DNA from: Candidatus Heimdallarchaeum aukensis
GTDB lineage: Archaea; Asgardarchaeota; Heimdallarchaeia; Heimdallarchaeales; Heimdallarchaeaceae
Direction of reading: 5' to 3'
Assembly: GCA_021513695.1 (NCBI GenBank)
Contig: CP084166.1
Span: forward strand, 1,568,001 to 1,632,000
DNA: 64,000 nucleotides
Position 1 is the first letter of the stretch. The number at the start of each line of letters is the position of its first letter. A program made the position numbers and the translations under genes. The notes under the pieces were generated by a model that was not told where the DNA came from, ran no database searches, and worked only from the letters and a program-made list of their open reading frames with translations. Below are positions 18,329-56,846 of the stretch, in pieces.

Positions 18329-18634
18329 TTAGAAGATTAATAGAATAGCTACAAGTAGACCATAAATTGCTACTGCTTCAATAAGCACGATGAACAAGAA
18401 GATTTTACCAAAAATCTCTGGTTTTTCAACTAATGCGCCTATACCAGCCGAACCAGCTGAACCCATTCCGAGTGCACTACCGATTCCTGCTAGACCTATT
18501 GCTAGAGCAGCGCCTATAGGTCTCATATCTCCTTCTTCACCTAGAGGAATTTCTGCAGCGAATGTACCTTTTGCGGTTATAATGATAAGCGCAACAATTG
18601 CTAGTAGTCCAATAATCAGATCATTTTTTTTCAT
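18329..18634 (-). CDS. atpK: A/V-type ATPase proteolipid subunit c (K)
   Basis: The ORF track starts at 18730, but the probable start is the internal Met (MKKNDLIIGLLAIV...). GAALAIGLAGIGSALGMGSAGSAGIGA glycine-zipper helix and a second helix with the conserved carboxylate (LIEAVAIYGLLVAILL). Confidence 0.8.
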   Translation of the reverse strand: MKKNDLIIGLLAIVALIIITAKGTFAAEIPLGEEGDMRPIGAALAIGLAGIGSALGMGSAGSAGIGALVEKPEIFGKIFLFIVLIEAVAIYGLLVAILLIF

Positions 18635-19467: not shown

Positions 19468-20127
19468 ATGGGTATGAAAAACTGGTTATTTGGAACCAAA
19501 CGCAAGGATGATGCTGAAGCTTTAGCTACACTCAAAGCTCAGATCAATCGATATGAGCACGAGTCCCGCAATTTAGAACGTCAAGCTGATGAACAAAAAT
19601 CTTTAGCTGCTAAGATGTTAAAGTCGGGTAATAAAGCTGGAGCTAAACAAGCTCTTAAGCGTCGAGCTATTTATATGAAACGTTTAAATCAGGTTCAAAA
19701 TATGCTAATGAACCTTCAGAGTCAGATTGATAGTATTCAAACTGCAACCTCTACTGTTGAAACAGTAAAGGCAATGGAGTTAGGTACGAAAGTTGTCAAG
19801 ACGAAGATGCAAGAAGTTGATGTAGAGAAAACTGAACGTGTAATGGATGAAGTTATGAGTCAACGTGATGAAATTGAAATGATGACAGAAGCTTTATCTG
19901 ATACTGCACTAAGTGAGAGCATTTTAGATTACGAAGATGATGTCGCAATTGATGATCAACTTGCTCAATTAGAAGCCGAGATGAATCTTGGTAAAACAGA
20001 AGAATTACCAGATCTTTCAGATCTTCCTTCAACTCCATCAGAAAAACCGACTGAAAAAGAAGAAGATACTTCTGACCTTGAAGCCGAATTAGCTTCTCTT
20101 AAGAAGAAGTTAAGTGATGACAAATAA
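19468..20127 (+). CDS. ESCRT-III, Vps20/32/60-like (Snf7 family)
   Basis: 219 aa. AKQALKRRAIYMKRLNQ Snf7-like helix, acidic C-terminus with a terminal MIM-like DLEAELASLKKKL. Confidence 0.8.
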   Translation: MGMKNWLFGTKRKDDAEALATLKAQINRYEHESRNLERQADEQKSLAAKMLKSGNKAGAKQALKRRAIYMKRLNQVQNMLMNLQSQIDSIQTATSTVETVKAMELGTKVVKTKMQEVDVEKTERVMDEVMSQRDEIEMMTEALSDTALSESILDYEDDVAIDDQLAQLEAEMNLGKTEELPDLSDLPSTPSEKPTEKEEDTSDLEAELASLKKKLSDDK

Positions 20128-21707: not shown

Positions 21708-23161
21708 CTACTGGGGCTGCAACCAATGGCTGAGCCCTTGGCAAACAGTGAAATGAGTGAGACTAAATTTACGACCAGTGAGTAGATCAGTAATAGTTGT
21801 TGCACGGGGGCGGAAAAGAGAACTAAGGAGCAGACGAGCGATATTCATTGCTCCTGTTAGATCAGAGTGGAAGGTGTAATTGCAAGAGGGACAATAAACT
21901 AACCCTCTAACGGGGCGGGTAACTTTTTTTCCGCAACGGGCACAGTGAGATGATGTTCCTCTTTCCTCTATCGTCAGAATTCGGTGAGAGGGAAAACCTC
22001 TAAGTATTAGTGCACGACGGATAAAAGAAAGAACAAGAGCATAGTTCCACTGGTGAAGTTTTCTTCGTGACTTGCGATTAGTTACTCCCTTATTTTTTTC
22101 TCGTCGAATGTATTTAGGATAACCTATAACAACGAAAAGATTATAGATCCGAGCATAAACCTCTATTGTCCACACGATAGCACTTACAAATTGATTGATA
22201 TACGCTCGTCTGACGTTTCTATACCTCCGACGGAGACGTTTGAGAAAACGGTAAACTTGGTGTTTTTTACCCGATTGGTCGTTTAAAGCTGCTTTCCTCT
22301 GAAGACGGGAAAGTTTGAGTTTATATCGATGATTAACTTTATTCCACTGTTTGGTATACTAGAACTTTATTTCTTTACTTGTTACCTTCTTTTTCGGGGT
22401 CAGTAGCACTTCTACCGCAGGAATGTTTATCCCTAGATCTATTCCCAGCACAGCTGGGGGAAGAAAAGAAGAGTCAGAAGAAAGATTATCTCCCTGAAGG
22501 AAAGAAGAAGGAAGAACTTTTGAATGAAAATATATCCACCATTCACGTGTAGAACGTTTGTATCTTATTTCTAAACTTTTTACTCTTTCTTTAATTCTTT
22601 TTGATGAAACTCGCTCATCTCTAAAGGTAACCACAATCGCTGATGAAAACGTGTTTTTCTTTTCCACCTATCTAACGAGTCTCGTATTCCTACCCACCAA
22701 CGAGAAAGAGTGTTATTCTTATCTTTTGGTAGATGGACGAGGATGAACCTTTTTTTATTAATTAATTGTCTTCTTGCTCTCTTTCTTGGAGGACGAGTAT
22801 TGTTAGGTCTATATCCTTGCTCATATAGTTGCACAGCTATATCTCTACATTCTTGAAACTCATCGTGAGAACAATAGGGAAACATTTTCTTCATATCGTG
22901 AGGAACAGTCGTTCTTCTTTCTTCCTCTTTTTTTACTCTCGAGGTCGTTAATGTCAATTCGTCTAATTTTCCTTTATGTACTTTTATTTTCCCTTCTTTT
23001 GCTTTAATACCTATTTTTTTTCTGTTATGGTGTATAATTCTCACATACTTTTCTATTATTCTAGTATCTCTCCCCGTTATTCTCCTTAACTTTTCTTTTT
23101 TTCTCGTCGTCAATACTTCATTCTTCACTCTCACCTTTAACGTTTTGACGACGTCCTCCAT
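21708..23161 (-). pseudogene. tnpB: tnpB pseudogene (frameshifted; fragments 22580-23161, 22359-22667, 21708-22175)
   Basis: Three ORF fragments in different frames together cover the 484-aa intact paralog, from the N-terminus MEDVVKTLKVRVKNEV... to the C-terminus ...HCARCGKKV...CPSCNYTFHSDLTGAMNIA. At least two frameshifts were seen. Confidence 0.75.
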
Positions 23162-23329: not shown

Positions 23330-24130
23330 ATGGCTACAATGGAAAAACAAAAAGATAATGAATTTGAGCAAATTGATCTTGAAAAATTGAAAGAAGAAAA
23401 GAAAATATCAGAAGATAAGCTTAAGCTTATTGAAGCCAGTATTAAGGGATTAAAAGTTTCAGAAGAAGAACTGAAGTCCACGAAACCTATTGTTAGAGAA
23501 GAAGCAAGATTAGAACTAACAGAAGACACAAAGACGAAGCTAATTAAAGAATTTGAGCAAAGTTTACCTGATTGGGTTAACAAGCCTTGGATGTATGTCA
23601 CCCCAAAAAAGGCAAATCAAGTTGAGTCTTGGTTAGACAGTTGGTCATCAGTCATGCTTGATTATACAAAGAAATTTGTTATTCATATTGTTAATGTCAA
23701 TTCTCTTAGAGAAACTTATCCTTTTTGTAATAAGAAAATAAGAAAAGAACTTACCATCGATCAAATTCGTGATATCATCGATTTTCTTGAAACAAAGGGT
23801 TTTGCTCTTTGGATAAATGATAGGACAAAATTCTTTGAGAAACTTTTTGCAAAGATACTTGGAAAACCTTTAACAAAAAAGATCCGTGCAAAGATAGAAT
23901 GGAAAACAAAAGAAGAATTTGCTGAAGATTTACTTAAATGGATGATTGAAACCGGTAGAGTAGTTGAAGTTCACTCTTTATATGATTTAACAAAATATGA
24001 ACAACCCTGGTCTTCTTTACCTTCAGATGATTTAATCCATGTATGCAATTTACTCGTAGAAAAAGGTTCTGCTAGATGGTTAAATAGAGAAAGAACTATA
24101 ATTTCCTTTGAAGCAACAAAGGTATTCTAA
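23330..24130 (+). CDS. ESCRT-II Vps25-like protein (tandem winged helix) with an N-terminal charged coiled-coil extension
   Basis: PFCNKKIRKELTIDQIRDIIDFLETKGFALWINDRTKFFEKLF matches the Vps25 WH1 pattern (LF.N..I.R.L....I..IL..L...G.AEW). The second WH is GRVVEVHSLYDL...LIHVCNLLVEKGSARWLN. The annotated ATG overlaps the IS terminus; the real start may be the next Met. Confidence 0.65.
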   Translation: MATMEKQKDNEFEQIDLEKLKEEKKISEDKLKLIEASIKGLKVSEEELKSTKPIVREEARLELTEDTKTKLIKEFEQSLPDWVNKPWMYVTPKKANQVESWLDSWSSVMLDYTKKFVIHIVNVNSLRETYPFCNKKIRKELTIDQIRDIIDFLETKGFALWINDRTKFFEKLFAKILGKPLTKKIRAKIEWKTKEEFAEDLLKWMIETGRVVEVHSLYDLTKYEQPWSSLPSDDLIHVCNLLVEKGSARWLNRERTIISFEATKVF

Positions 24131-24183
24131 CTTTAATTTTTATTTTAATTTTATTTATTTACTATTTTTTGTGATGTAATGCT

Positions 24184-24621
24184 ATGTTTAAAAATTATAT
24201 ATTGAATAGACTTTTGAGATTTATGTCTTTAGACGATGAAGAATTACAAAGGATTCGAGAAAAAAAGGCACAACAACTTAGGCAAATTTTAGAACAGAGA
24301 AAATCAAAAATGGAACAACTTAAACAAGAGGAAACAGCGCCAAAAAGCATTACAAAAGAGGACAAGTATCGTTTAATGAATTATTTTCTAACTGATGACG
24401 CTTTTTCTTATTGGAAGAGTCTATATGAAAATCCACAAAAGCATAATACAGCAGAAACAATTTTCATTAATTTGCTCTATCTGATTAAGATTGGTTTTAT
24501 GGAAGGAAAACTTATCTCTCTTCTAGGAATTAAAAAATTAGAAAGAAAAATAGATAATATTCCTTCTAAAATCACAATAAAGAGAAAAGGAGAAAAAGAA
24601 AGATCCAAAGTTTTGGATTAA
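24184..24621 (+). CDS. PDCD5/TFAR19-like dsDNA-binding family protein
   Basis: LDDEELQRIREKKAQQLRQILEQRKSK... N-terminal helix and a C-terminal ...LLYLIKIGFMEGKLISLLGIKKLERKIDN...ITIKRKGEKE pattern typical of PDCD5-like proteins. Confidence 0.45.
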   Translation: MFKNYILNRLLRFMSLDDEELQRIREKKAQQLRQILEQRKSKMEQLKQEETAPKSITKEDKYRLMNYFLTDDAFSYWKSLYENPQKHNTAETIFINLLYLIKIGFMEGKLISLLGIKKLERKIDNIPSKITIKRKGEKERSKVLD

Positions 24622-24697
24622 TAATTGACTTTTACTTATTAGGTTACATTTATTTAGGATAATGAAAATAAAGTATTAGAAAGGAGCTGATGGATAA

Positions 24698-24934
24698 ATG
24701 AAGTTGAGTATTGTTACCGCAATAGGAGGAGGTCTTTTAGAATTAGATGTTGATAGCCATCAAACAATTGCACAACTTAAAAGAGAAGTTTCAAGAATTA
24801 AAAAGATACCTGCAAATACAGTTATTTTGGTTCATCATGGTCAACAGTTAGATGATGGTGAAACAATTAAGAGTTGCGGATTACAAGAAGGAGATAAACT
24901 CTATCTAATTGCAAGAACAAAAGGTGGACTTTAG
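24698..24934 (+). CDS. Ubiquitin-like beta-grasp protein with C-terminal Gly-Gly
   Basis: 78 aa, ends ...ARTKGGL. Embedded next to an E1-like gene and ESCRT genes. Confidence 0.75.
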   Translation: MKLSIVTAIGGGLLELDVDSHQTIAQLKREVSRIKKIPANTVILVHHGQQLDDGETIKSCGLQEGDKLYLIARTKGGL

Positions 24935-25009
24935 CTTTTCTATTTCAAAATTTTTTTAGAAGAATAGAAACTGTTTTATTACTTCTAAAAGATATTTTTG
25001 TGAAAGTGG

Positions 25010-26014
25010 ATGTCTAAAGAAGGTAGATATGCGAGACAGACTCTCATACCTGGTTGGAATCAGAAGAAACTCAACAAATCAACAGTTATTATTGTTGGTG
25101 TGGGAGCAATTGGATCATATGTATCAACGATTTTAGCTTCTTCAGGAGTAAAAAATCTCATTCTAATTGATTTTGATACTATTGAAATCTCTAATCTTAA
25201 TCGTCAATTACTATTTCGGGATGGAGATATTGGAAAATCCAAATCTGAAATTGCAGCTATGCGATTATCGGAACTAAATCCAGATATTAACATTACCTTT
25301 CATCATAAGAAGATGCAAGATTTACCTATTTCTATTTACAAAAAAGCAGATGTCATTGTGGCTTGTCTTGATACCTTCATTGGAAGAAGATGGATAAATT
25401 CACTTGCTGTAAAAATAAACAAACCTTTAATTTTAGGTGGAATGTTTGCTTTTCTAGGAGATGTTCAAGTTGTTTTACCAAAAAAAACTGCTTGCTTTGA
25501 TTGTCAACCTTTAGTTGCAGAAAGAGAACTTGCGCAAGCTTGTACTCCATTCGGAGAAGAAAGGAAGAAAAACAGAGAAGAAAAAGAGGATGAAGCGAAA
25601 TTACCATCTGTAGCCACATTGTCTGCGATTATCGGAGGAATTATGGCACAAGAAGCCTTAAAACTTCTTTTAGACATAGGTGAACCAATCAAGAATTATC
25701 TTTTCTATGATGGATTACATAATGCAACAACAATAATTGAACTTGCAAGAAGAAAAAAAGATTGTCCAACTTGTGGAGAACTATATGAGTTGGAACAAGT
25801 CGAATTTGTGGTAAATAAAGATAATACCGTCAAAGAACTATTAATCCAATTAGGTTTACAATTCGGACTTGAGAGCCCAGACATTATGATTAAAGGGAGG
25901 ATACTCCCTCACGATTCAAAAATCCAAGAACTAGGTATAAAAAATAACATGAAGGTTTTTGTAATGGACAAAAATTTAGCTTCACCAATCAAGTTAAAGT
26001 TAAAGATTGAGTGA
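25010..26014 (+). CDS. E1-like ubiquitin-activating enzyme (ThiF/MoeB/UBA family) with a C-terminal beta-grasp-like tail
   Basis: Rossmann nucleotide motif VGVGAIGSYV, ...LIDFDTIEISNLNRQ..., zinc knuckles CFDCQ and CPTCG, and a candidate catalytic Cys in a QACTP context. Confidence 0.85.
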   Translation: MSKEGRYARQTLIPGWNQKKLNKSTVIIVGVGAIGSYVSTILASSGVKNLILIDFDTIEISNLNRQLLFRDGDIGKSKSEIAAMRLSELNPDINITFHHKKMQDLPISIYKKADVIVACLDTFIGRRWINSLAVKINKPLILGGMFAFLGDVQVVLPKKTACFDCQPLVAERELAQACTPFGEERKKNREEKEDEAKLPSVATLSAIIGGIMAQEALKLLLDIGEPIKNYLFYDGLHNATTIIELARRKKDCPTCGELYELEQVEFVVNKDNTVKELLIQLGLQFGLESPDIMIKGRILPHDSKIQELGIKNNMKVFVMDKNLASPIKLKLKIE

Positions 26015-26025
26015 AAAAAGAAAAT

Positions 26026-26751
26026 TTAGGTGTGTGACAGTCCAGGGAAATAATATTTAGTTCCTTCAGCATAGGAACTATCTACTCTTGCTATACCATT
26101 TTCTTCAAAAAATGATAAGCAACGATTAATTCTTTCCTCTGCCCACCCTGTTCTAAGTAATAGATCTTCTTTTGTTACAAATCCTGTTCTTGAAGCAATG
26201 TTTAATATTACATCATGGTCGGGACTGAATTCAACAGGAGCAAATTCTACTAGTTTCACTCCAGATTCTAAAACTTTGAAAGGTGGAATTAATTTTGAAT
26301 TTATGAGTTTCTCTAATGAACGATACAAGTCATCAATTGTAACTAGTTTTCCAGGTCTAGTTTTATTTAATTGGGTAAACAATTCACCTACAGACATTAT
26401 ACCTCCATTTTCTTCTATAAGTTTTTGACCCAAATCCATGATTTCGTTTGCTAAAACATCATAGAAACCTTTTCCTGTTAATCTATCTTTTAGAGTTGGA
26501 GCTTCTTTCCATTCATATCTCCCTATTTCTGTAGGTAAGCCTAGTTCTTCTCGCAGGCCAGCAAGTTTTTCATAATATTCTTTATTTTCAACTATTTTAT
26601 CACCATATTTCTTTTCAAATTTCTTTAGTTGCTTTTTAACTTGTTTAATATTTTCCAACATTTGTTCTAATTCTTTTATCATTAATTCGGCTTCTTTAAC
26701 TTGGAAAGCTGACTTCACTTTTAATTTCTTTTCAATATCTCTTAAGCCCAA
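26026..26751 (-). CDS. ESCRT-II Vps22/Vps36-like (EAP30 family) tandem winged-helix protein
   Basis: GGIMSVGELFTQLNKTRPGKLVTIDDLYRSLEKL and ...TKEDLLLRTGWAEERINRCLSFFEENGIARVD match the EAP30 WH1/WH2 patterns. Confidence 0.75.
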   Translation of the reverse strand: MGLRDIEKKLKVKSAFQVKEAELMIKELEQMLENIKQVKKQLKKFEKKYGDKIVENKEYYEKLAGLREELGLPTEIGRYEWKEAPTLKDRLTGKGFYDVLANEIMDLGQKLIEENGGIMSVGELFTQLNKTRPGKLVTIDDLYRSLEKLINSKLIPPFKVLESGVKLVEFAPVEFSPDHDVILNIASRTGFVTKEDLLLRTGWAEERINRCLSFFEENGIARVDSSYAEGTKYYFPGLSHT

Positions 26752-26823
26752 CTTTAATCACTATTTTTTATTTGTCAGTGAGATATAAAAAATATACTAT
26801 TTAATTTCGCAATTAGCTTAGAG

Positions 26824-27132
26824 TTAAAAAAGGAGAGGAAGTCTTCTAATCCACTCTTTAATTGAATTCATAAGCTTTTTAGATTCATTTGGAGGAAGAA
26901 AAGCTGCTAGTTTGTCTTTATAGTTTTTGTATAGTTTTTGATAAACGCTGTCCATTTCATCAACAATTGAATCATTTACCAAATTGATTTTTTTAACAAG
27001 ATGTTTTATCTCTTCCAACTCTTCTAAGATGTATGAACAGTCAATTTTTATTTCTAAGAGATCCATCAACTCGAATAAACTATCTTTTGCTTTATTATAG
27101 GTATTTTCTAAAGATTTTCTCCTAGAAATCAT
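26824..27132 (-). CDS. Small all-helical protein, candidate Vps28 C-terminal-domain-like ESCRT-I component
   Basis: 102 aa predicted helical bundle, located between the Vps23-like and Vps22/36-like genes on the same strand. Assignment is by context only. Confidence 0.3.
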   Translation of the reverse strand: MISRRKSLENTYNKAKDSLFELMDLLEIKIDCSYILEELEEIKHLVKKINLVNDSIVDEMDSVYQKLYKNYKDKLAAFLPPNESKKLMNSIKEWIRRLPLLF

Positions 27133-27168
27133 GTTTACTCCTCTAAAAAGGCTGGATAAAAGATAGGA

Positions 27169-28638
27169 CTACATATCTTTTAAAATTCGTCTAAATTCGT
27201 TTAACCATCTTGATGCTTGGAATTCTAGTTTTTCACAATCGTCTTCATTTATTATTTCACTTGGTTTATAATTTGAAAGAATGTCTTTCCAGTTTTTCAT
27301 ATCGCTGAGCATCCAATGATCTTGCGGAATAGATGGAAACGAGTGCAAAACATGAATTAGCTCTTCTACGTCAGCCAACAGCAAATCAGCTCGTGCGACT
27401 GATTTAAGCCTTGTTAGATCAATTAATTCAATTGCAGCTGAAACAAAATCAGCTGTTTTTACAGGCATTTTCTTTAAGGATTCAAATGGTATCATTTCAA
27501 CATCTTTAGTTCCAGTTCCTTCAGCCATTTGTAGCAATCTCATTCCTTTGTCAAATCTATTTAGCAGATTTTCTTGCTCTATAAACGAATCGAGATCAAA
27601 TCCACCTAATTGTTCCAGTTTCATTCTTGTTTTGAAAACTGTTCTTATTAGTGATCTTAACTGCTTTTTATATGCAACTTGCTCAATCTCACCATTTTCA
27701 TACCCTCTCGCTAAATTATCTAATGTCACTATTGCTGCATATAAATCAGCTTCAAAATCTAATCTTTTATCTAAATCACTAGGCATTACTTGTCCTCCAA
27801 CATTTTCTAAATAAGCTAATTTTTTATTTGTCTTATAACTTTCCACTGAATATTTTCTATAAAGTTTCAAGTAATCAACACTTGAAAGATCTCCATCATC
27901 AAATTTCTCATTTAATAGCTCTAATAAGTCATTAGATGCTCTTGAACTTGCTTTTAAATCATCGGTTACAGAAATTGTAAGTTCTTTTAATGAATGTGAA
28001 GGCTCAGCTTTCTTGATTAGAGCAGCTCTTTTTTCCTCAATTTGTTTATTTAGTTCGTTTATCTGCTGCTGATACGCTTCTATCTCTGCTTCAATAGTAC
28101 TTTTTTCTATCGATGTTTGACTCCGTTCATTAAAGGATGGTACACTTTGCTTACGTACAGTGTGACGTGAAACTGTTCTTGGTTTCATCGGTTGAACTAC
28201 AGATCTAGACACACTCCTAGCTGTAGACATATGCTTTGTTCTTAATGGTCTTGCAGGAACATTAGCAAATAATCGCCGAATATCATTTATAACTTGATAA
28301 ATATGATAGCGTGGTTTCCATTGAGCGAGTATTTGCAAACTAAGAAAGTCATTGTCGTCAACATTAGGATGATTTACTTTAGGAGTAATTTCAACTTGAG
28401 GAGGAATTCTTGGGAACTCTGGAGAGATATATATTGTAGCATAAACAGTTATCTTCGTTCCTTGAATTATCCCTACAGGGCCTTTCCACTTTCTTAAATT
28501 GCCTCCTACTGGCTCAAATCCTTCAACATTATTATAAATTAATTGCATCTCATTAGCAAGAATCTGATCTAGAGAAATTTGTCTCACCTTTACTCTTCTA
28601 TTATTGTTATAAACTTCAAAGTTTAAAAAATATTGCAT
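27169..28638 (-). CDS. ESCRT-I Vps23/Tsg101-like protein with N-terminal UEV (inactive E2) domain
   Basis: N-terminal UBC fold with an HPN motif (KVNHPNVDDNDF...LQILAQWKPRYHIYQVINDIRRLF) but no catalytic Cys after it, which makes it a UEV domain. Followed by a Pro/Ser-rich linker, a long coiled-coil stalk and a C-terminal helical domain. Confidence 0.7.
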   Translation of the reverse strand: MQYFLNFEVYNNNRRVKVRQISLDQILANEMQLIYNNVEGFEPVGGNLRKWKGPVGIIQGTKITVYATIYISPEFPRIPPQVEITPKVNHPNVDDNDFLSLQILAQWKPRYHIYQVINDIRRLFANVPARPLRTKHMSTARSVSRSVVQPMKPRTVSRHTVRKQSVPSFNERSQTSIEKSTIEAEIEAYQQQINELNKQIEEKRAALIKKAEPSHSLKELTISVTDDLKASSRASNDLLELLNEKFDDGDLSSVDYLKLYRKYSVESYKTNKKLAYLENVGGQVMPSDLDKRLDFEADLYAAIVTLDNLARGYENGEIEQVAYKKQLRSLIRTVFKTRMKLEQLGGFDLDSFIEQENLLNRFDKGMRLLQMAEGTGTKDVEMIPFESLKKMPVKTADFVSAAIELIDLTRLKSVARADLLLADVEELIHVLHSFPSIPQDHWMLSDMKNWKDILSNYKPSEIINEDDCEKLEFQASRWLNEFRRILKDM

Positions 28639-28729
28639 TCAAAAAAAAGAGTCTTTTCTTGAGAAAAAAATATATGAAAAAAAATTGATTATAATTCTAA
28701 ATTACAATAGAACCTAGGAATAAACTCTT

Positions 28730-29272
28730 TTACTTTCTATTTTTGACTAAAAGTGTAGCTAGTTTCACAAATGCTTCTTGAACATGTTCTCCTGTAAGTG
28801 CACTTGTTTTTATGAAATCCAAACTATTGATTTTGTTTTGTAATGATTTACATTCATCATCTGATACAGCAATTTTATCTTCTAAATCATTTTTATTTCC
28901 AACTAAGATGGTAAGGGTGTTCTTTCCACAGTTTTTAACAAGTTCAGAGTTCCATTTCTCTAGATCAGTTAGTGTTGAATTCCTGGTTAAATCGAAAACC
29001 ATCAGTGCTGCTTTTGCTCCTTTAAAGAAAGTATGTCTTATAAACCTAAATCTATCTTGTCCTGCTAGATCCCAAATTGAAAGAGCTACAACTGTATTGT
29101 CCTCTAATGTAACAAATTTCTCACTCGGTTCCATACCTATTGTCATCAGATAACTTTGTTCAAAACGATTATGAACAAAACGTTGTACAAGAGATGTCTT
29201 TCCTACAGCGGCGGCACCTAATAGAAGTATTTTGAAATTGAAATCAGGACGAATTGAACGCATTATTCTCAA
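28730..29272 (-). CDS. Ras-superfamily small GTPase, Rab-like
   Basis: G1 GAAAVGKTSL, G3 WDLAGQDRF (compare Rab WDTAGQERF), G4 GNKNDL, G5 TSAL. 180 aa with no lipidation-style tail inspected. 91 bp upstream of the Vps23-like gene on the same strand. Confidence 0.9.
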   Translation of the reverse strand: MRIMRSIRPDFNFKILLLGAAAVGKTSLVQRFVHNRFEQSYLMTIGMEPSEKFVTLEDNTVVALSIWDLAGQDRFRFIRHTFFKGAKAALMVFDLTRNSTLTDLEKWNSELVKNCGKNTLTILVGNKNDLEDKIAVSDDECKSLQNKINSLDFIKTSALTGEHVQEAFVKLATLLVKNRK

Positions 29273-33173: not shown

Positions 33174-34628
33174 CTACTGGGGCTGCAACCAATGGCTGAG
33201 CCCTCGGCAAACAGTGAAATGAGTGAGACTGAATTTCTGACCAGTGAGGTAATCAGTAATGGTGTTACATCGAGGACGGAAAAGATATCCAAGGAACTTA
33301 CGAGCGATATTCATTCCCCTTGTTAGATCAGAATGAAAAGTGTAGTTACAGGAAGAACAATGAACTAACCCTCTAACGGGACGGGAAACTTTCCTCCCGC
33401 AACGAGCACAGTGAGAAGATGTCCCTCTTTCCTCTATTGTTAATATTCGGTGAGATTCAAAGCCTCGAAGTATAAGTGCCCGACGGAGAAGAGAGAGAAC
33501 AAGAGAAAAATTCCACTGATGAAGTTTTCTGCGAAACTTACGATTACTTTTTTCTTTTTCTTTTCCTTCTCGAACATGTTTGGGGTAACCTACAACAACG
33601 AAAAGGTCATACACTTGTGCATAACTCTCTATCGTCTGCACAACATCGCTTATAAATTGGTGAATATACGCGCGTTTAACGTTTCTATACCTCCGACGAA
33701 GAAGACCAAGAAAACGGTAAACTTGGTGCTTTTTACCTAACTGGTCGTTTAAAGCTGCTTTCCTCTGAAGACGGGAAAGTTTGAGTTTATATCTATGATT
33801 GATTCTATTCCACTGTTTAGTATACCAGAATTTTATCTCTTTTTTTGTTAACTTCTTTTTAGGAGTCAGTAACACTCCTGCAGCAGGAATGTTTATCCCT
33901 AGATCTATTCCCAGCACAGCTGGGGGAAGAGAAGAAGAATTATCTCCTTGACTTGTGAGATAAAAGGAAGAAGGAGGAAGAACTTTTAATTGGAAATACA
34001 CCCACCATTCACGTGTAGAACGTTTGTATCTTAGTTCTAGACTTTTCACCCTCCCTTTCTTTAACTCTTTCTGGTGAAAATCGCTCATCTCTAAAGGTAA
34101 CCACAACTTCTGATGATAAGGTGTCTTTCTCTTCCAGGTATCTAACGAGTCTCTTATTCCTACCCACCAACGAGTAAGTGTATTATTCTTCTCTTTTGGT
34201 AGATGGACAAGAATGAACCTTTTTCCATTAATTAATTGCCTTCTTGCTCTCTTTATTGGAGGACGAGTAGGACGGGGTCTATACCCTTGTTCATATAATT
34301 GTACAGCTATATCTCTACACTCTTGGAATTCATTGTGAGAACAATAGGGAAACATTTTCTTCAAGTCGTGAGGAACAGTCTTTCTCCTCTCTTCTTCTTT
34401 TACTCTTGAAGTAGTCAGTGTCAACTCGTCTAATTTTCCTCTATGTACTCTTATTTTCCCTTTTTTTGTTCTTATACTTATTTTTCTTCTGTTGTGGTGT
34501 ATAATTCTCACATATTTTTCTATTATTCTCGTGTCTCTCCCCGTTATTCTCCTTAATCTTTCCTTTTTTCTCGTCGTCAATACCTCATTCTTTATTCTCA
34601 CTTTTAATGTTTTGACGACGTCCTCCAT
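33174..34628 (-). CDS. tnpB: TnpB (RuvC-like RNA-guided nuclease family, IS200/IS605 OrfB)
   Basis: RuvC-I LGIDLG, C-terminal zinc finger HCARCGRKV...CSSCNYTF and RuvC-III HSDLTRGMNIA. The canonical RuvC-II glutamate is not evident: the sequence reads LFVVVGYPK where the third TnpB in the window has AIVIEEIS. Confidence 0.85.
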   Translation of the reverse strand: MEDVVKTLKVRIKNEVLTTRKKERLRRITGRDTRIIEKYVRIIHHNRRKISIRTKKGKIRVHRGKLDELTLTTSRVKEEERRKTVPHDLKKMFPYCSHNEFQECRDIAVQLYEQGYRPRPTRPPIKRARRQLINGKRFILVHLPKEKNNTLTRWWVGIRDSLDTWKRKTPYHQKLWLPLEMSDFHQKELKKGRVKSLELRYKRSTREWWVYFQLKVLPPSSFYLTSQGDNSSSLPPAVLGIDLGINIPAAGVLLTPKKKLTKKEIKFWYTKQWNRINHRYKLKLSRLQRKAALNDQLGKKHQVYRFLGLLRRRYRNVKRAYIHQFISDVVQTIESYAQVYDLFVVVGYPKHVREGKEKEKSNRKFRRKLHQWNFSLVLSLLRRALILRGFESHRILTIEERGTSSHCARCGRKVSRPVRGLVHCSSCNYTFHSDLTRGMNIARKFLGYLFRPRCNTITDYLTGQKFSLTHFTVCRGLSHWLQPQ

Positions 34629-39866: not shown

Positions 39867-40247
39867 ATGTCAATAAGTTTACCACCAGAAAAGAAAAAAG
39901 AATTAATTAAAATATTAAAACAAATTTCACAAGGTTGTGAATTGGAAGCTTTAGCAGTTGTAACAGATGAGGGAATTAAAGTAGCTTTTTTTGCCGAGAA
40001 AAGTGCAGACCCTGATTTACTCAGCGCTGTAAGCTCGGCTGTTCTTTCCACCGGAGAGATGGTTACAAAACAGCTTTCTCACGGTTTTTTGGAACAAGTT
40101 TTAATCCGCGGTGCTAAAGGATTTACTATCTTATCTAATTTAGATCACTATCTTTTAATTGGAGCTTCTAAGGATTTACACAGCGTTGGTTTAGCTATAC
40201 AAGTAATAAGAAGGCATAGCCCCACAATTGCAGAATTGTTAAACTAA
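39867..40247 (+). CDS. Roadblock/LC7 (MglB-like) domain protein
   Basis: 126 aa. ELEALAVVTDEGIKVAFFAEK...VSSAVLSTGEMVTKQL...LIRGAKGFTILSNLDHYLLIGASKD matches the roadblock fold pattern. Confidence 0.75.
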   Translation: MSISLPPEKKKELIKILKQISQGCELEALAVVTDEGIKVAFFAEKSADPDLLSAVSSAVLSTGEMVTKQLSHGFLEQVLIRGAKGFTILSNLDHYLLIGASKDLHSVGLAIQVIRRHSPTIAELLN

Positions 40248-40289: not shown

Positions 40290-41291
40290 TTAATAAAAGA
40301 GGAAACTCTTCTCTATTTCCTCTTGGCTAAAGCCAGCATTAATTCCAACAATTATTCTAATAAGATCAGAGATTTCTGCGTATTTCATTTCAAAAAAGGC
40401 AATCAATATTTTAAGATCAGTTGAAGATTTTTGACGAAATATTTTTTTCCATTTTTTGATTTGGAAACGCTCAACAGCAAATTCTATATCATGTAGAGGA
40501 ATATCATCTTTTCCCATGTAGTCAGCGAAGATTCTTTTGTATATTCCAAAATTGTACATGCTTAGGACTTCAGGAATGGAATTTGATTCTAATGCTTTTG
40601 CAATAAATGTTGTTGGTTTAATATAACGATAGGGAGCAATCCCAAGATTAATACATCTACACACCCAAATTATGTTCTTTAAGTTAACGTAGACATCAAA
40701 CTCACGAGAAATTACAGGGAGAATATAATATTCAAATTGATCTATTGCTGCGTCAACTGGTACAAAACGTCCTGTTTTCTGAAATTCAGAATAGCCTTGT
40801 TCTAATAATTGTTTGAAAGTCTGAATTTTTTCTGACTTAATGATATCAGCAATTGATGAGGAGGAAGAAAGAACTTTTTCATAATATTCATAACTGTATC
40901 TTCCAACTGGAGAAATTCTTTCTATTATTTCTTCATGAGGTTGCTTCATAAACAGTCCACGAAGAATATATCGGATATTCTCTGCATGAAATCGTTGGGA
41001 ATGAAGATCAATTATCTTTTTTGCTCTACTTGATCCCTGTTTATAAAAAGTGCTCACAGTTTGAGCAAAATGGTTCTTTAATTGTTTTGCAACTTCTGGC
41101 ATCTCTGTAACAAAATTAATATCTTGAACAATTGGACCATATTGCGTTTGCCGAAAAGCAGCTTGTAGTTCTTTAAGATTAGAAGAGGATAGAAGAAAAT
41201 TTATCTGACTTCGACTAAGTACTTTGCCTATTATTCCATGAGCTCTTCCATATAAATATCCATCTCCTGAGAACATTTCATTCACCAGCAA
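40290..41291 (-). CDS. atpC: A/V-type ATPase subunit C (homolog of eukaryotic V0 subunit d)
   Basis: 333 aa all-helical. NIRYILRGL and ILIAFFEMKYAEISDLIRIIVG patterns. Overlaps the subunit I gene by 14 bp. Confidence 0.75.
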   Translation of the reverse strand: MLVNEMFSGDGYLYGRAHGIIGKVLSRSQINFLLSSSNLKELQAAFRQTQYGPIVQDINFVTEMPEVAKQLKNHFAQTVSTFYKQGSSRAKKIIDLHSQRFHAENIRYILRGLFMKQPHEEIIERISPVGRYSYEYYEKVLSSSSSIADIIKSEKIQTFKQLLEQGYSEFQKTGRFVPVDAAIDQFEYYILPVISREFDVYVNLKNIIWVCRCINLGIAPYRYIKPTTFIAKALESNSIPEVLSMYNFGIYKRIFADYMGKDDIPLHDIEFAVERFQIKKWKKIFRQKSSTDLKILIAFFEMKYAEISDLIRIIVGINAGFSQEEIEKSFLFY

Positions 41292-44200
41292 TAGTTGTGT
41301 ATTGAATAAATTTGGTTTTCTCTAGTAATGGAGTATATTGGACACCTTCCCCTTTGTAGAACTTGGAGAAAAATTCTACCCAATGCAACCTCAGTGTCTG
41401 TAAGAATGAGAACATTCCTTCAATAGGTACAATCACAACAAGTCCCCAAACAATGCCAACAATCCAATAAATCCAAGAGGTAGCTAAAGCAGAGACGTTA
41501 TGGGTATCAACACCAGCTAAAATATATGGAAGACCACTCAAAATTGCATGGACTAGTAACATAGCTAAGATACGGCTAAAGGATAGTGTGTTAGAGAATA
41601 GAGCAATAAGATGATCTATAGCTTCCATAATCCCCTCTGTTCCTTCATGGAGATATTCGAATAGGAAAACTAGAGGAATTGAAACTAAGGCAATAATTGT
41701 AAATATTGTAGAATAGGGTTTTGGAATACTAGGAAGTGCATTTCCACCGATAAGTCGTGAAGTAGCACCAGCACCCATTAAATTATACAATACTGCAAAA
41801 AGTCCTACGTAAAAAATGGAAAGTATAATTGGAGAAATCCATGAAGCTACACCGTGACCGTATTTTTTGTTTTGTATAAATCTTAACCAGATCCCAAGTT
41901 GTATAATTACAAAACCAATAGAAATGGAAAACAATAAGAACAATGGTACTTCTTTTGTAGGCTCAATCAAAGGCAACCATTCAATATGCAAAACGTTTTC
42001 ATAAATATCAGGTAGAAATACTTCATCACCTAGAAGTGCTCCAAATAGGAAACCAAAGATAATTGAAGAAAAACCAGAAAGAGCAAGTAACTCAGAACCT
42101 TTATACAGAAATCCAGACATTGATTCATCAGGTTCAATATTCTTTTTGTTTTTCTTATAAGTTAGAAACAATCCAATCAAGAAGAGAAGTATTCCATGTC
42201 CCACATCAGCGAACATTATACCAAATATCAAGGGAAAAGTAAATTGTATAATTTTGAAGGGGTCTACTTCATGAGTTGAAGGGATACCCATTCCATCAAC
42301 TATTCCTCGAAAAACTTTAGTAACCTTATTCCCATGTTTTGTCATTGAAGGATTCGTTAATGGTACTTTTTGTTTTTCAGACATAGTTATTGGAAAATCC
42401 AATTTTTCGGTTTCTTTCTTTAAGTCTTCAACCCTATCTTTAGGAACCCAACCCCAAATTGTTGTAGTGGTTTCATCAGTTTTACATTTTTCTTCTGTTT
42501 CCAACCTTTTAATTTCTGTTTCTATTAACTCTTCTAGTGCGAAGATTTTGTCTTCTACTTTCTCCCTAATTTCATCCAATTCATGTTCTTTATGTTCTAT
42601 TTCAGTTTGAAGATTCGTGAGCTGACTTTCAATAGATTCTGAAGATATCATGCTATAGTCAATAGATAACAGCTCAAAGGAATATTCTTCTAGAACTTGT
42701 TGTATAGACTTCTTATAATCTATTAGAGACAATATGTAGACAAAGACTGTGTCACTTTTTTCTGGTTGCTCAACCTCAATGAAAATTAATTGCCCATCAG
42801 AAACTTCATTTAGGAAAAACTTTACAGCCTTAACATTCTTTTTTGGGATATTCCCCAAAAAGGTACAAGTTTCAAAATCTGGATCATCCAAGTATGGTTT
42901 AACATCAGAGCTTAAATAGGAATAAATAGGGATATATGCTTCTAATTCTGTTTTCTTCGCTTTTAATTCTTTAAGTTCGGAACTAAGATTTTCTATTTTT
43001 TCTCCATAATCTGCAATAAATTGCTCAACAAAAGATATAGCTTCATCATAGTTATCTTTTACAGCAATCTTAGAATCAGATATTGCTGGAGGAATAGATA
43101 ATCCAAGGGCTTGTTTGTATCTGCTAATTTTGGAAGATAGTAAAGTAAAATTCTGTCTTTTTTGTTTTATGTCGTTTAAAATATCTTCTGACTGTCTTCC
43201 TATCTTTTCTTGATGAAGGATACCAGTGTTATGAATAAAGGAGATTAACTTACGTGTGTGCTCCTTTGGGACTTCCATTTTAACAAACTCTACATCCTTC
43301 GGAAATAAAGCTCCTCCCTTACTGTCACCTAAATGATGATAAGGAGGAATTTCTTTTTCAATTGTTTTTTCTTCTTTCAAAGTCAAAGAACCACGATCCT
43401 TGGAAATTTTTTTAGATTTTTTATATTTCAGAGGAACATCCCTCAATTGAGTGAGTTTAACAGGAAAAGGAAGCTCTTTGAGTTCCTTTTCGAGATTAAG
43501 ATAATCATTAGGTTTAATCCAACCCCAAAGGGTGAAATTAGTTTGAGTTGTTCGACCCTGTTCTAGAATATCAAATAACTCAAGCATGAGATTAATAAAA
43601 GTGAGAAAATGCAAAAGAGTTTCACGATGTTCATCACGCAATTCTGAAATTTGAGATAAAATTTCATCGTGCTTTTCGTGCAGAAAATCATGTACATTAG
43701 CTACTGTAAGCTTGCTAGTTTCTTCATCACTGAACATATCGGCAAAAACAGACAGTTCAAAATCTATTGAAGAAAAATAGAAATTTTCTAGAATAGTCAA
43801 AACTTCATCTTGATATTCCTGGGGGGTGAGAATAAAAACCAAACGAAAATCAGGGTTAGATGATTCAATACTCCAGAAGTAATAAAGACCTTTAGTTATC
43901 TCATCAATATAAAAGGAGATAACTTTCTTATACGAATGATGGATTTCTCCAACGATAGAAAAGGTGGAAGGCCCAGAAGAAAGTAAATCTAAAGGGATAT
44001 CACCAGTCTCAAACTTATGCCGAAAATAATGAAGTTTGTCGGCAATTAGATGCTTCTTTGTTAAAGAATGATTTTCTTCAAAAAGAGAGATAAGAGAAGT
44101 TTCATGTGTATCTAAGAAAGATTTTAGTTCGGAAAGAAATCTAGAAGCATCAAAAACATCAGAGTAGTTTTTTTCTGAATATGAATAAACATCAGAAAGA

Positions 44201-44406
44201 TCTAGACCTAGTTCTTGTGATATGGTAGTAAAACGCTTTAACAAATCAGAAAAAAGCTGGCGATTATCTTCAATTTTAGCCAATTCTGAAGGAGATTGAG
44301 TATCAATTTGAACAAAATCAAAACAATCTAAATAATGTAATTTGGATACAAGAGGAAGGGAGTCGGAGGGTGACACCTGAACCTTTGAAAGTACTCTTTT
44401 TGCCAT
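41278..44406 (-). CDS. atpI: A/V-type ATPase subunit I (a), unusually long, with an apparently duplicated N-terminal cytoplasmic domain
   Basis: 1042 aa. C-terminal about 340 aa is polytopic membrane domain with the conserved Arg-containing helix region. Two copies of N-domain signatures: a start-like MAKRVLSKVQV...LHYLDCFDFVQ and a second ...FVKMEVPKEHTRKLISFIHNTGILHQEKI. Two WGW motifs: LWGWIKPNDYLNLEKELKELPFPV and IWGWVPKDRVEDLKKETEKLDFPI. Confidence 0.8.
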   Translation of the reverse strand: MAKRVLSKVQVSPSDSLPLVSKLHYLDCFDFVQIDTQSPSELAKIEDNRQLFSDLLKRFTTISQELGLDLSDVYSYSEKNYSDVFDASRFLSELKSFLDTHETSLISLFEENHSLTKKHLIADKLHYFRHKFETGDIPLDLLSSGPSTFSIVGEIHHSYKKVISFYIDEITKGLYYFWSIESSNPDFRLVFILTPQEYQDEVLTILENFYFSSIDFELSVFADMFSDEETSKLTVANVHDFLHEKHDEILSQISELRDEHRETLLHFLTFINLMLELFDILEQGRTTQTNFTLWGWIKPNDYLNLEKELKELPFPVKLTQLRDVPLKYKKSKKISKDRGSLTLKEEKTIEKEIPPYHHLGDSKGGALFPKDVEFVKMEVPKEHTRKLISFIHNTGILHQEKIGRQSEDILNDIKQKRQNFTLLSSKISRYKQALGLSIPPAISDSKIAVKDNYDEAISFVEQFIADYGEKIENLSSELKELKAKKTELEAYIPIYSYLSSDVKPYLDDPDFETCTFLGNIPKKNVKAVKFFLNEVSDGQLIFIEVEQPEKSDTVFVYILSLIDYKKSIQQVLEEYSFELLSIDYSMISSESIESQLTNLQTEIEHKEHELDEIREKVEDKIFALEELIETEIKRLETEEKCKTDETTTTIWGWVPKDRVEDLKKETEKLDFPITMSEKQKVPLTNPSMTKHGNKVTKVFRGIVDGMGIPSTHEVDPFKIIQFTFPLIFGIMFADVGHGILLFLIGLFLTYKKNKKNIEPDESMSGFLYKGSELLALSGFSSIIFGFLFGALLGDEVFLPDIYENVLHIEWLPLIEPTKEVPLFLLFSISIGFVIIQLGIWLRFIQNKKYGHGVASWISPIILSIFYVGLFAVLYNLMGAGATSRLIGGNALPSIPKPYSTIFTIIALVSIPLVFLFEYLHEGTEGIMEAIDHLIALFSNTLSFSRILAMLLVHAILSGLPYILAGVDTHNVSALATSWIYWIVGIVWGLVVIVPIEGMFSFLQTLRLHWVEFFSKFYKGEGVQYTPLLEKTKFIQYTTIAGE

Positions 44407-44867: not shown

Positions 44868-46004
44868 ATGGAAGAAATAGTATCTGATAAACCGTTGGTA
44901 ATAGACAACGGAACAGGATTCACAAAAAATGGATTCGCAGGAGAAGATCAACCAAGAAGTGTGTTCCCAACGCTAATAGGTTATCCAAAATACCAAATAA
45001 TAATGACTGATGTTGAACATTACGTAAGAGAATACTATATAGGAGAAGAAGCACTAAACTTGAGAGGAGTGCTCAAACTAGTATACCCAATAGAACATGG
45101 TCAAATAGGTGACTGGGACGCCATGGAAAGAATCTGGCATTACACCTTCTATAACGACCTTAGAGTTAATCCTAACGAGCATCCTATTTTGCTCACCGAA
45201 CCTCCTCTTAACAAGAATGTCAACAAGGAAAAGATGGCCGAATTAATGTTTGATACCTTTAATGTTCCTGCTATGTATATTAGCATGCAAGCTATTCTTT
45301 CGCTTTATGCTTCTGGTCGTACTACAGGTATTGTAGTCGACAGTGGTGATGGTGTTACACACATCGTTCCTGTTTACGAAGGTTTTGCAATTAGTCATGC
45401 TATTCGCAGAGCTGATATTGGTGGTCGTGATATTACTGACTATCTACGTCGTCTATTAAGACAAAGAGGATATTCCTTAACCAGCAGTGCAGAACGAGAA
45501 ATTGTTCGTGACATTAAGGAACGTCTTTGTTACGTAGCTTTAGATCCTGAAAAAGAACTCAAACTTGCTGAGAAAGTTTCTGGTATGGAAAAGACTTACA
45601 CCTTGCCAGATGGTGAAACTCTAAGCATTGGCGCTGAGCGCTTTATGGCTCCTGAATTGTTCTTCAATCCTGGTGCCATCGGTTCTGAAGAACTTCCTTT
45701 GGATGAACAGATCTATCAAGCTATCACTGATTGTGATGTCGATCTTCGTAGAGATCTTTATTCCAACATTGTTCTTTCTGGTGGATCCACCATGTTCCCA
45801 GGTTTGAAGGAGAGATTACACAAGGAACTTACTGAACTAGTCCCCGAAACTATGGAGGTTAAGATTATCGCTCCACCAGAACGTCGTTACAGTGTTTGGA
45901 TAGGAGGAAGCATCCTCAGTAGTCTTAAGACCTTTACCAAACTTTGGGTGACTAAGAAAGAGTATAAAGAAACTGGTCCTACCGCAGTTTATCGTTGTAT
46001 CTAA
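44868..46004 (+). CDS. Actin (Asgard lokiactin-type, eukaryote-like)
   Basis: 378 aa. [32 protein letters not shown], ...[47 protein letters not shown], ...[10 protein letters not shown] and C-terminal ...[16 protein letters not shown] are near-canonical actin motifs. Confidence 0.95.
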
Positions 46005-46185: not shown

Positions 46186-47124
46186 TTGTTGGACGTCAAT
46201 TTACTCAGATCTTATTTATCTGAGCCTAACTATCGCGCTGTTTTATCGGAGATTATACATTCCCATCGTAGCCGTTCTATTGACGAACTTTCTTCTCTTT
46301 TTCCTTCTTTAACTAGTAACTACTCTTTAACTAAAATTTTGAAGAAGTTTGTAGATATAGGTATTATTAAAAGCAAGAAAATTTCCCTTGGTTCTCAAGA
46401 GCGTGAATTTTATTTTCCCAATCGGGAACTTTTACGAAGTAATTTTTATCAAGATTTGCTTTTAGAATATGAAGATCTAAATTATCCAGCCAAACTAGAT
46501 CTGGAATTTACTTATCTTTGGGAAGATTGGCCTCAGTGCCTTGTTGATAATGGTTCTTTAACCCTGTATATTGTCACCAGTACTTATTTACCTGAAAATG
46601 TAGATATTTCACACCTAACAAAGCTTCTTACTGTTTGGGCTTTAAAATATGCAAAACTATCTATTGAAAACATTCATATTTCTAATATTGTTGATATTAA
46701 AGCAACACCAGTTAAAACTAATAATCTAATAGTTATTGGTTCTGGAGAAGTCAACAAGGTTACTGCCGATATTTTATCTCTTTATGGTGACTCTTTACCT
46801 ATTCGTTTTCAATCTAAATCAATATATAGTTCCTTGACTTCCAAAAATTATTCTTCTACAAAAGGTTCTATTGTAGGTTTACTTCCAAATCCCTGGAATC
46901 CTAGCAAAATTGCTTTAATCTGTTCTAGTATGAGTTATTTTGGAACTAATATTTCACTTAAAGCTTTAATTGATGATCTTGATTCAATTATCCATCAAGA
47001 ACCCAGAATTTTATCTAATCACTCTGTTTATTCTGAAATCCCCATTCGTGTTCTTGCATCAGAAGAAAACAACAAGAATAAAGAAAAACTTGAAGGACTG
47101 AAATCTTACACTTTCAAAGAATGA
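46186..47124 (+). CDS. Hypothetical protein with N-terminal winged-helix-like domain, directly downstream of actin
   Basis: 312 aa. N-terminus LSEPNYRAVLSEIIHSHRSRSIDELSSLF...KILKKFVDIGIIKSK looks like HTH. The remainder is unassigned. Confidence 0.3.
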   Translation: MLDVNLLRSYLSEPNYRAVLSEIIHSHRSRSIDELSSLFPSLTSNYSLTKILKKFVDIGIIKSKKISLGSQEREFYFPNRELLRSNFYQDLLLEYEDLNYPAKLDLEFTYLWEDWPQCLVDNGSLTLYIVTSTYLPENVDISHLTKLLTVWALKYAKLSIENIHISNIVDIKATPVKTNNLIVIGSGEVNKVTADILSLYGDSLPIRFQSKSIYSSLTSKNYSSTKGSIVGLLPNPWNPSKIALICSSMSYFGTNISLKALIDDLDSIIHQEPRILSNHSVYSEIPIRVLASEENNKNKEKLEGLKSYTFKE

Positions 47125-55913: not shown

Positions 55914-56846
55914 ATGAGTAACTTACCATTAGAATTTCCTTTGTATCTTAGTAATATTTCAGTAAAAGAAAAAGACACTCCAGAATTAGTTTTAACTTAT
56001 GAGGGAGATGAAACCCTTGTTGATAAATTGCTTCTAATTGGGAAGAATAATGGCTTACCTGACAACATTAATGCGGCCTTACCTTTTGAGCAAAAGAAAG
56101 TAAAAGGGAGAGTAGTTTTTGAGATTACTATCCCTATTTATGAGGACGGAGAATTTCAAGCTGTTGTGGAGTATGAAGACGAATATATTTATGAACCAGG
56201 GCAAGCTCATAATATAGTCTTTAGAGGTAAAGGTATTTTTTTGGATTTCAGAAAAATATTCCATCTTCAAAAAGAAGTTGTAAGACCAAAAGGAGCACCT
56301 AAACCTACCAAAAAAGAAACAGAACTCGAGGAAAAAATTGAAATTAAGAAAGAAGAGGATAAGCTTACTCCGTCTATTGAAAAGAAGAAAGATTTGACTC
56401 CTATTGCGGATAAAGATAACCTGCTAAAGGTTCAGCCTAAGGATTTTAGAAACTTTGATGAAAACCTTAAAACAAAACTTCTTCAGATATTGGATTATTT
56501 AGCAAATGAAAAAAGTAAAAAACTTGTTCTTGACACCATTATTCTGCCAGATATCTCTAGAACACTCAAAAGGCTAATTCTAGAAGAAATGAGGAAAAGC
56601 GTCTACGAAGCATGTTTTCCTGTAATTGTGTTGATCGAGAAGGCTCTGATATTAGGTGGTATGGTTTTTCAAGCTGTTTTTACTGATGAAACATTTGAAG
56701 AATATAAAAAAGAGGTTGTAGAAAAAATCCCAAAAATAAAAGAAAAAATCAATAGAATTGAGTTTGAACCCACAAATACTATGATAAAAGTAAAATACGA
56801 TAAAGACAAGCATTCATTTAAGAAAATGTTATATCATCAGATATAA
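55914..56846 (+). CDS. Hypothetical two-domain protein (N-terminal beta-rich, Lys/Glu-rich linker, C-terminal helical)
   Basis: ORF only. Confidence 0.25.
   Translation: MSNLPLEFPLYLSNISVKEKDTPELVLTYEGDETLVDKLLLIGKNNGLPDNINAALPFEQKKVKGRVVFEITIPIYEDGEFQAVVEYEDEYIYEPGQAHNIVFRGKGIFLDFRKIFHLQKEVVRPKGAPKPTKKETELEEKIEIKKEEDKLTPSIEKKKDLTPIADKDNLLKVQPKDFRNFDENLKTKLLQILDYLANEKSKKLVLDTIILPDISRTLKRLILEEMRKSVYEACFPVIVLIEKALILGGMVFQAVFTDETFEEYKKEVVEKIPKIKEKINRIEFEPTNTMIKVKYDKDKHSFKKMLYHQI

Follow-up and report, generated by a model that had tools for sequence, protein, structure and literature searches.

A stretch of 64,000 nucleotides from Candidatus Heimdallarchaeum aukensis (contig CP084166.1 of assembly GCA_021513695.1, positions 1,568,001 to 1,632,000; hereafter the window) was analyzed around its gene for subunit I, also called subunit a, of the A/V-type rotary ATPase. 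The window is AT-rich, with a G+C content of about 28–38%. The gene, atpI, is an open reading frame (ORF) of 1042 aa on the minus strand that starts with an ATG codon and spans positions 41278..44406, exactly as located by a sequence-only reading of the same DNA. That reading had described the product as a subunit I with an internally duplicated soluble N-terminal domain, a description on which self-alignment, profile-profile comparison, NCBIfam matches to the extra domain and the predicted fold all agree. The whole protein matches the Pfam family V_ATPase_I (PF01496) at 164.1 bits (cut-off 30.7, E = 5e-48) and belongs to this family. It is complete, and its orthologues are 1042–1067 aa long.

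Four parts follow each other along the chain, all encoded on the minus strand. Residues 1–330 (43417..44406) form N1, an extra and diverged copy of the hairpin domain found at the N-terminus of subunit a (aNT). It is built from a proximal lobe, a coiled coil, a distal ferredoxin-like lobe, a coiled coil and the proximal lobe. Residues 331–365 (43312..43416) make up a linker. It is predicted to be disordered, with an AlphaFold2 (AF2) predicted local distance difference test score (pLDDT) of ~30 across residues 324–370; comparison of seven orthologues showed a length of 35–40 aa in all of them and a charged or proline-rich, variable sequence. N2, residues 366–690 (42337..43311), is the orthodox N-terminal domain and the copy with which the one N-domain of ordinary I subunits aligns. 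According to Pfam and to a profile search of the PDB, residues 691–1042 together with the stop codon (41278..42336) represent the membrane (ion-channel) domain. Each N-domain carries a WGW motif, at residues 294–296 of N1 (43519..43527) and 651–653 of N2 (42448..42456). The motif does not vary in any N1 or N2 and is also invariant in nearly every single-domain relative.

The membrane domain is intact and retains the essential arginine expected of a subunit I/a. Scanned alone, it matches Pfam V_ATPase_I with E = 1.5e-38, and in the PDB profile search it aligns with eukaryotic a subunits, including the motifs LSFSRILAMLLVHA and LRLHWVEFFSKFYKGEG. R945, within LSFSRILAMLLVHA, aligns with the arginine of the yeast Stv1 motif SYLRLWALSLAHA, which identifies its codon (41572..41574, minus strand) as that of the conserved essential arginine of the proton path. 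LRLHWVEFFSKFYKGEG, which covers the RLHWVEF region, aligns with LRLHWVEAMSKFFEGEG of Stv1. Both R945 and the RLHWVEF region are invariant in 10/10 sequences aligned; the AF2 model of the membrane domain is of low confidence. The gene is also encoded with other subunits of the enzyme. Immediately downstream, in the same operon, lies atpC (40290..41276, minus strand; Pfam PF01992, E = 1.8e-32; NCBIfam AhaC), coding for the 328-aa A-type subunit C that equals eukaryotic subunit d, and the atpI-atpC pair is present in all related loci. A probable atpK for a single-hairpin proteolipid c/K of the same membrane sector (18329..18634, minus strand, with its start placed at an internal Met; Pfam PF00137, E = 1.6e-19; NCBIfam subunit K, E = 1.4e-20) is found 22.6 kb from the pair. 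The two-lobed N-terminal hairpin, the remaining hallmark of the subunit, is present twice, with matches in fold to solved aNT and I_NT structures. The product of atpI is a true subunit I/a from the stator of a rotary A/V-type ATPase.

The internal repeat is evident from the protein sequence. Self-alignment, a check put forward in the sequence-only reading, pairs residues 8–326 with residues 376–683 at 22% identity, with a blastp E-value of 3e-19 under the default composition correction and of 5e-26 (94 bits) without it. The best of 258 scored shuffles of N2 had 29.6 bits, and the shuffles averaged 19.3 bits with a standard deviation of 2.7. Profile-profile comparison of seven N1 with seven N2 sequences by hhalign gave a probability of 100% and E = 1.6e-45 over 312 columns. 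An alignment of 21 sequences shows N1 and N2 matching each other and the one N-domain of ordinary I subunits from end to end with few gaps, with K8, T148, G153 and W294-G295-W296 in common. The motif reported to occur twice is indeed found as FTLWGWIKPNDYLNLEKELKELPFPV at residues 291–316 and as TTIWGWVPKDRVEDLKKETEKLDFPI at residues 648–673. Likewise, the start-region signature occurs at residue 1 (MAKRVLSKVQV) and again at residue 367 (LFPKDVEFVKMEV), and both occurrences align with the N-termini of ordinary I subunits.

Scanning with family models gave a mixed outcome. The two N-domain matches anticipated for Pfam V_ATPase_I were not obtained, as this profile missed N1 alone entirely and matched N2 alone with E = 0.0013; NCBIfam subunit-I models, in contrast, detected N1 scanned alone at E = 1e-6, at corresponding profile positions. 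Similarity between the N1 and N2 halves was also looked for at the DNA level and none was found. The duplication is therefore old, and a recent duplication was ruled out on the same grounds. Aligned with single-domain relatives, the linker corresponds to the K-rich N-terminal leader in front of their 'LFP' start motif, so that the duplicated unit comprises leader plus aNT. It is near certain that one old intragenic tandem duplication copied the whole aNT with its short leader. A conserved internal start giving rise to a protein of normal length was considered and rejected, since Met377 is not kept among the orthologues.

To place the protein among its relatives, an exhaustive profile search of 1.84 billion representatives was performed and the best 150 of ~6,500 matches were examined; word-indexed searches with a single sequence or a profile returned nine matches only and no added depth. 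Single-domain relatives in the exhaustive search measure 625–740 aa, in line with the usual length assumed in the sequence-only reading. Among the best 150 matches, only P0003, P0010, P0011 and P0012 cover the full profile (positions 1–1043). P0003 is the window's own cluster, and the other three are 1065, 1051 and 1067 aa long, respectively. The P0013 cluster also qualifies through its member P0159 (1066 aa). The architecture is thus present in at least five clusters at 50% identity, and their names, where given, are all Heimdallarchaeaceae or Heimdallarchaeota. The closed genome of Ca. Heimdallarchaeum endolithica PR6 (CP084167.1) has the same architecture in a protein 97% identical to that of the window, and an NCBI protein named from a Heimdallarchaeaceae archaeon is 98% identical; the diverged long proteins are 36–38% identical to the window protein. 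PR6 was the one genome returned when genome contigs were scanned for N1-specific patterns. The internal repeat was recovered in 6/6 other long proteins (E from 1e-12 to 6e-29), and none of the single-domain controls tested showed one.

The next-best matches (P0015–P0030, ~670–720 aa) match the profile only from position ~363–370 onward. Therefore, N2 is the orthodox domain and N1 the addition. In agreement, blastp against ordinary I subunits gave E = 1e-8 to 1e-9 for N2 and E = 0.1 for N1, and hhalign aligned N2 with single N-domains at E = 1.5e-39. A neighbour-joining tree recovered N1, N2 and the two combined as monophyletic groups in 100/100 bootstraps each, and the subtree of N1 mirrors that of N2. 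This pattern argues for one duplication in the ancestor of the clade, after its split from the sampled single-domain relatives. On this tree, the single duplication dates to the ancestor of a Heimdallarchaeaceae clade. N1 is fused to the membrane subunit in every orthologue, with no stand-alone N1 among the short database entries examined (P0014, P0042, P0051). The candidates for stand-alone N1 genes were discarded: P0013, P0014 and P0042 are frameshifted or truncated copies of full-length members, and P0051 looks like an incomplete version of a different long protein.

The only database label of the protein is the generic 'V-type ATPase 116kDa subunit family protein'. A literature search found no description of a duplication in an Asgard or Heimdall ATPase subunit I and nothing specific on three-stalk archaeal enzymes or on homology between subunit C and aNT, and no ATPase is annotated in the supplements to the genome paper on PR6. 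The doubled-aNT architecture is a conserved, lineage-specific feature for which we found no published description.

N1 is maintained by selection. Compared with two strains, it shows 26–29 synonymous and 14–20 non-synonymous differences, and the ratio of non-synonymous to synonymous rates (dN/dS) is 0.135 and 0.173, comparable to that of N2 (0.176) and of the membrane domain (0.07–0.16). Mean identity is 33% among N1 orthologues and 35% among N2 orthologues. N1 is retained at full length, with no notable indels, across lineages down to 36% overall identity. Conservation by region is mirrored in the two domains, the distal lobe ranking highest in both (2.41 in N1, 2.47 in N2). As a separate observation, the synonymous rate dS between the window and L004, a 98%-identical JGI strain, is uneven along atpI (0.13 in N1, 0.005 in N2 and 0.04 in the membrane domain), which suggests recombination between strains within the gene.

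Structure prediction, likewise proposed beforehand as a check, returned an aNT fold for N1. The AF2 model of the full-length protein has a pLDDT of 61.7 and a predicted template modelling score (pTM) of 0.33, with the same order of elements in both halves. Modelling of N1 only, on the 21-sequence domain alignment, gave a pLDDT of 86 and a pTM of 0.71; the use of such a mixed alignment is justified by sequence homology. The N1 model runs through a beta-alpha-beta unit, a long helix, a ferredoxin-like lobe, a long helix and a second beta-alpha-beta unit. This order is that of the aNT hairpin, which consists of a proximal lobe, a coiled coil and a distal lobe (PMC3470569). In Foldseek, N1 best matched the N-terminal domains of a/I subunits from mammals, yeast and Thermus (E from 1e-12 to 1e-9, template modelling (TM) scores of 0.5–0.63). 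Both N1 and N2 fold into two-lobed hairpins, and purifying selection maintains the two of them.

Known subunits I/a differ from this layout. Prokaryotic subunit I, as in Thermus thermophilus (I/a; PDB 5GAR, 6QUM) and Meiothermus ruber (I_NT; PDB 3RRK), is ~650 aa long and has one N-domain, which holds two stalks, whereas the window protein has two N-domains in tandem. It departs in this respect from the canonical single-aNT architecture (~600–750 aa in prokaryotes), with its Pfam family membership unaffected. All nine NCBIfam equivalogs, NF004427–NF004435, scored below their cut-offs, the best being NF004428 with 231.9 versus 766 bits. By profile score, the protein ranks as a divergent subunit I and falls outside NCBIfam's curated equivalog groups. 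The nearest solved structure by sequence is eukaryotic subunit a (Stv1, E = 1e-29), followed by those of E. hirae (1e-15) and Thermus (1e-8). Eukaryotic subunit a (yeast Vph1/Stv1, mammalian a1–a4; ~820–870 aa) is also longer than the prokaryotic protein, but through insertions and without a second aNT, and in the eukaryotic V-ATPase two separate subunits, C and H, complete the collar.

Subunit C (Vma5p, PDB 1U7L) is the eukaryotic component to which N1 may be compared. Its fold is a dumbbell of head, neck and foot, which the shape of N1 may recall. Subunit C is a separate soluble polypeptide that binds EG stalks and leaves on disassembly, whereas N1 is fused to the membrane subunit and stays covalently attached in every orthologue. 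The Pfam profile V-ATPase_C found no match in N1 alone at E ≤ 10 nor in the whole protein at E ≤ 1, and the fold of N1 matches subunit C with a TM score of only 0.28, compared with 0.5–0.63 for aNT. N1 clearly derives from the lineage's own aNT, with no C-like gene as its source, and falls outside the subunit C family, although it may work like subunit C. Amplification of a motor module by intragenic tandem duplication has been described for the double-hairpin V-type proteolipids and the 13-hairpin K subunit of Methanopyrus kandleri (PMC3639240). The atpI case resembles these in that a structural module of the motor is amplified in tandem within one gene. The proteolipid duplications, however, concern the rotor ring and the ion-to-ATP ratio, and that of atpI concerns the stator collar.

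The number of peripheral stalks is a textbook divide, with two in prokaryotic A/V-type and three in eukaryotic V-type enzymes (PMC3639240, PMC6131620). In A-type enzymes, subunit a by itself makes up the collar, to which two E-G(H) stalks are attached, one per lobe; in eukaryotic V-type enzymes, aNT, C and H together form a collar for three stalks (PMC6131620, PMC3639240, PMC3470569). In the known enzymes, the distal lobe is an EG-binding site (PMC3470569). We propose, as the likeliest role and with a probability of roughly 0.4, that N1 is a second collar arm adding docking sites, possibly for a third stalk. Both chain ends of the aNT hairpin should sit in the proximal lobe, so that N1 would be tethered beside the proximal lobe of N2 by 35–40 flexible residues. 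It would then extend round the central stalk in the direction opposite to N2, toward the third B subunit, which two-stalk enzymes leave without a stalk, and the half-collar would become a nearly closed one. N1 could in this way supply an extra docking surface for stator components, a plausible partner being a third E-H stalk at the third B subunit. Its role would liken it to eukaryotic subunit C (with H), of which it would be a covalent functional counterpart. The distal lobe, the most conserved region of N1, counts in favor of stalk docking, and an enzyme that is otherwise intact (R945, RLHWVEF, the adjacent atpC and atpK within the window) is consistent with a collar arm.

Several observations weigh against this proposal. 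The linker is flexible, and at a pTM of 0.33 both the N1-N2 orientation and the placement of N1 in the full-length model are unreliable. The alignment used for the N1-only model includes N2 and ordinary N-domains and biases the result to their fold. No V1 genes, and thus no genes for E and H, were found among the ORFs scanned in the window. Moreover, the ancestral residues R17, D172, E269, E274 and P298 (numbering of aligned N1), which are shared by N2 and single-domain relatives, are lost in N1, and N1 has a conserved set of its own (D35, P39, E41, A43, Y159, Y210, Y328, K330). This exchange speaks for a changed partner of N1 more than for a simple extra stalk site. N1 appears, judged from its sequence, to be a constrained but partly neofunctionalised copy. 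The stronger claim that the A/V-ATPase of Heimdallarchaeaceae is a three-stalk enzyme, with a third E-H stalk anchored by N1, seems unlikely.

The change in conserved residues is also relevant to a possible, if doubtful, alternative in which N1 has been neofunctionalised and serves non-ATPase partners as a platform for docking or regulation. Candidates would be the cytoskeleton, small-GTPase or Roadblock-type regulators, membrane-remodelling machinery or lipids, comparable to targeting and regulation by eukaryotic aNT isoforms. A conserved set that differs from the ancestral one and includes the basic tail motif DVPxxY(K/R)K would fit such a role, as would the position of N1 on a flexible linker. 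The genomic context points in the same direction. The atpI-atpC pair lies beside a divergent actin gene upstream of atpI (44868-46004, plus strand; PF00022, E = 3e-132), a neighbor kept in the related loci L001, L002, L004, L008 and L009, and beside a Roadblock/LC7 gene convergent after atpC (39867-40247, plus strand), kept in L001–L004 and L006. In L006, the pair is ~7 kb from atpK, two Snf7 genes and Vps4. Synteny within one family is nonetheless weak evidence of functional linkage, and Roadblock does not adjoin the pair in L008 and L009. In addition, a conservation pattern that mirrors N2, with the distal lobe on top, fits a retained, similar type of interaction.

The flexible tether would also permit large movements, as required if N1 were a regulatory or assembly element inside the enzyme, for instance an autoinhibitory arm acting on subunit C(d) or the rotor, or a conditional substitute for N2 at the stalks. 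The model for this would be the aNT-d contacts in autoinhibited eukaryotic Vo, and the apparent separation of Vo-sector genes (I, C, K) from V1 genes in this clade is compatible with separately assembled sectors. We regard such a role as distinctly unlikely; it draws on analogy, with no sequence feature specifically in its favor, and reversible dissociation is, to our knowledge, not known in prokaryotic rotary ATPases. That N1 is a functionless remnant or spacer, slowly decaying since the duplication, is very improbable. Its greater distance than N2 from ordinary N-domains and the blindness of the Pfam profile to it would be expected of a decaying copy, but this idea is already largely refuted by a dN/dS of 0.13–0.17, a full length without notable indels, a conservation among orthologues equal to that of N2 and a confidently predicted fold. 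Finally, the sequence-only reading had itself named a misassembled in-frame fusion of two genes as a possible source of the extra length; a fusion of two adjacent genes by sequencing error was considered as well. Nothing was found in favor of such an artefact, and its chance is practically negligible, as the 1042–1067-aa architecture recurs in several diverged lineages and in PR6, whose genome is closed, and the ORF is continuous in independent NCBI, JGI, ENA and Logan assemblies. The seemingly split genes P0013, P0014 and P0042 have the origin given above.

In this protein a collar-forming domain has been doubled within the stator subunit of an Asgard lineage, with both copies under selection. 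As also envisaged in the sequence-only reading, which expected a changed peripheral-stalk geometry, the doubled arm could alter how the motor head is held. We know of no established origin of the eukaryotic collar. If N1 anchors a third stalk, this would provide an archaeal answer to a problem that eukaryotes met with subunits C and H, in a family belonging to the Asgard class that includes the closest known relatives of eukaryotes. It would also mean that an aNT-like, dumbbell-shaped expansion of the collar can arise from duplication of aNT, and an aNT-duplication origin of eukaryotic subunit C would become a testable hypothesis. Should N1 hold a stalk or another stator element, it would represent a natural intermediate-like or convergent design; should it bind other components of the cell, the part that eukaryotic aNT plays in targeting and regulation would have a precedent in archaea.

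In the nearest single-domain relatives, atpI, atpC and atpK form an operon with no V1 genes nearby (L007 10001-13607; L010 583-4119; L012 10001-13552). Vo-type and V1-type genes appear to be organised separately in this clade, unlike the usual single archaeal atp operon. In the window, atpK is divergent from two putative Snf7 (ESCRT-III) paralogues (18835-19452 and 19468-20127, plus strand) and a Vps4-like AAA ATPase gene (20255-21400, plus strand), assignments made by length and order matched to the K, Snf7, Snf7, Vps4 arrangement of L006 and not by profile scan. Directly after atpK, a 128-aa protein without a Pfam or NCBIfam match is encoded at 17923-18309 (minus strand). A 124-aa gene follows atpK in L006, and the 128-aa protein may be a conserved partner of the proteolipid gene.

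A ubiquitin/ESCRT gene cluster occupies positions 23330-29272. It comprises an ESCRT-II Vps25-like gene (23330-24130), a ThiF/E1-like gene (25010-26014), an EAP30/Vps22-36-like gene (26026-26751), a gene fusing a UEV/UBC-like domain with a Vps23 core and Vps28 (27169-28638) and a gene for a Ras/Rab-like small GTPase (28730-29272). Three plus-strand ORFs are without a Pfam family, at 2593-4575 (660 aa), 46186-47124 (312 aa) and 55914-56846 (310 aa), and the 312-aa ORF is kept beside actin in L001, L002 and L004. TnpB/Cas12f-like ORFs (PF07282, OrfB_IS605), two of full length and one short, are scattered over the minus strand at 33174-34628, 62247-63545 and 21708-22175 and indicate elements of the IS200/IS605 type.

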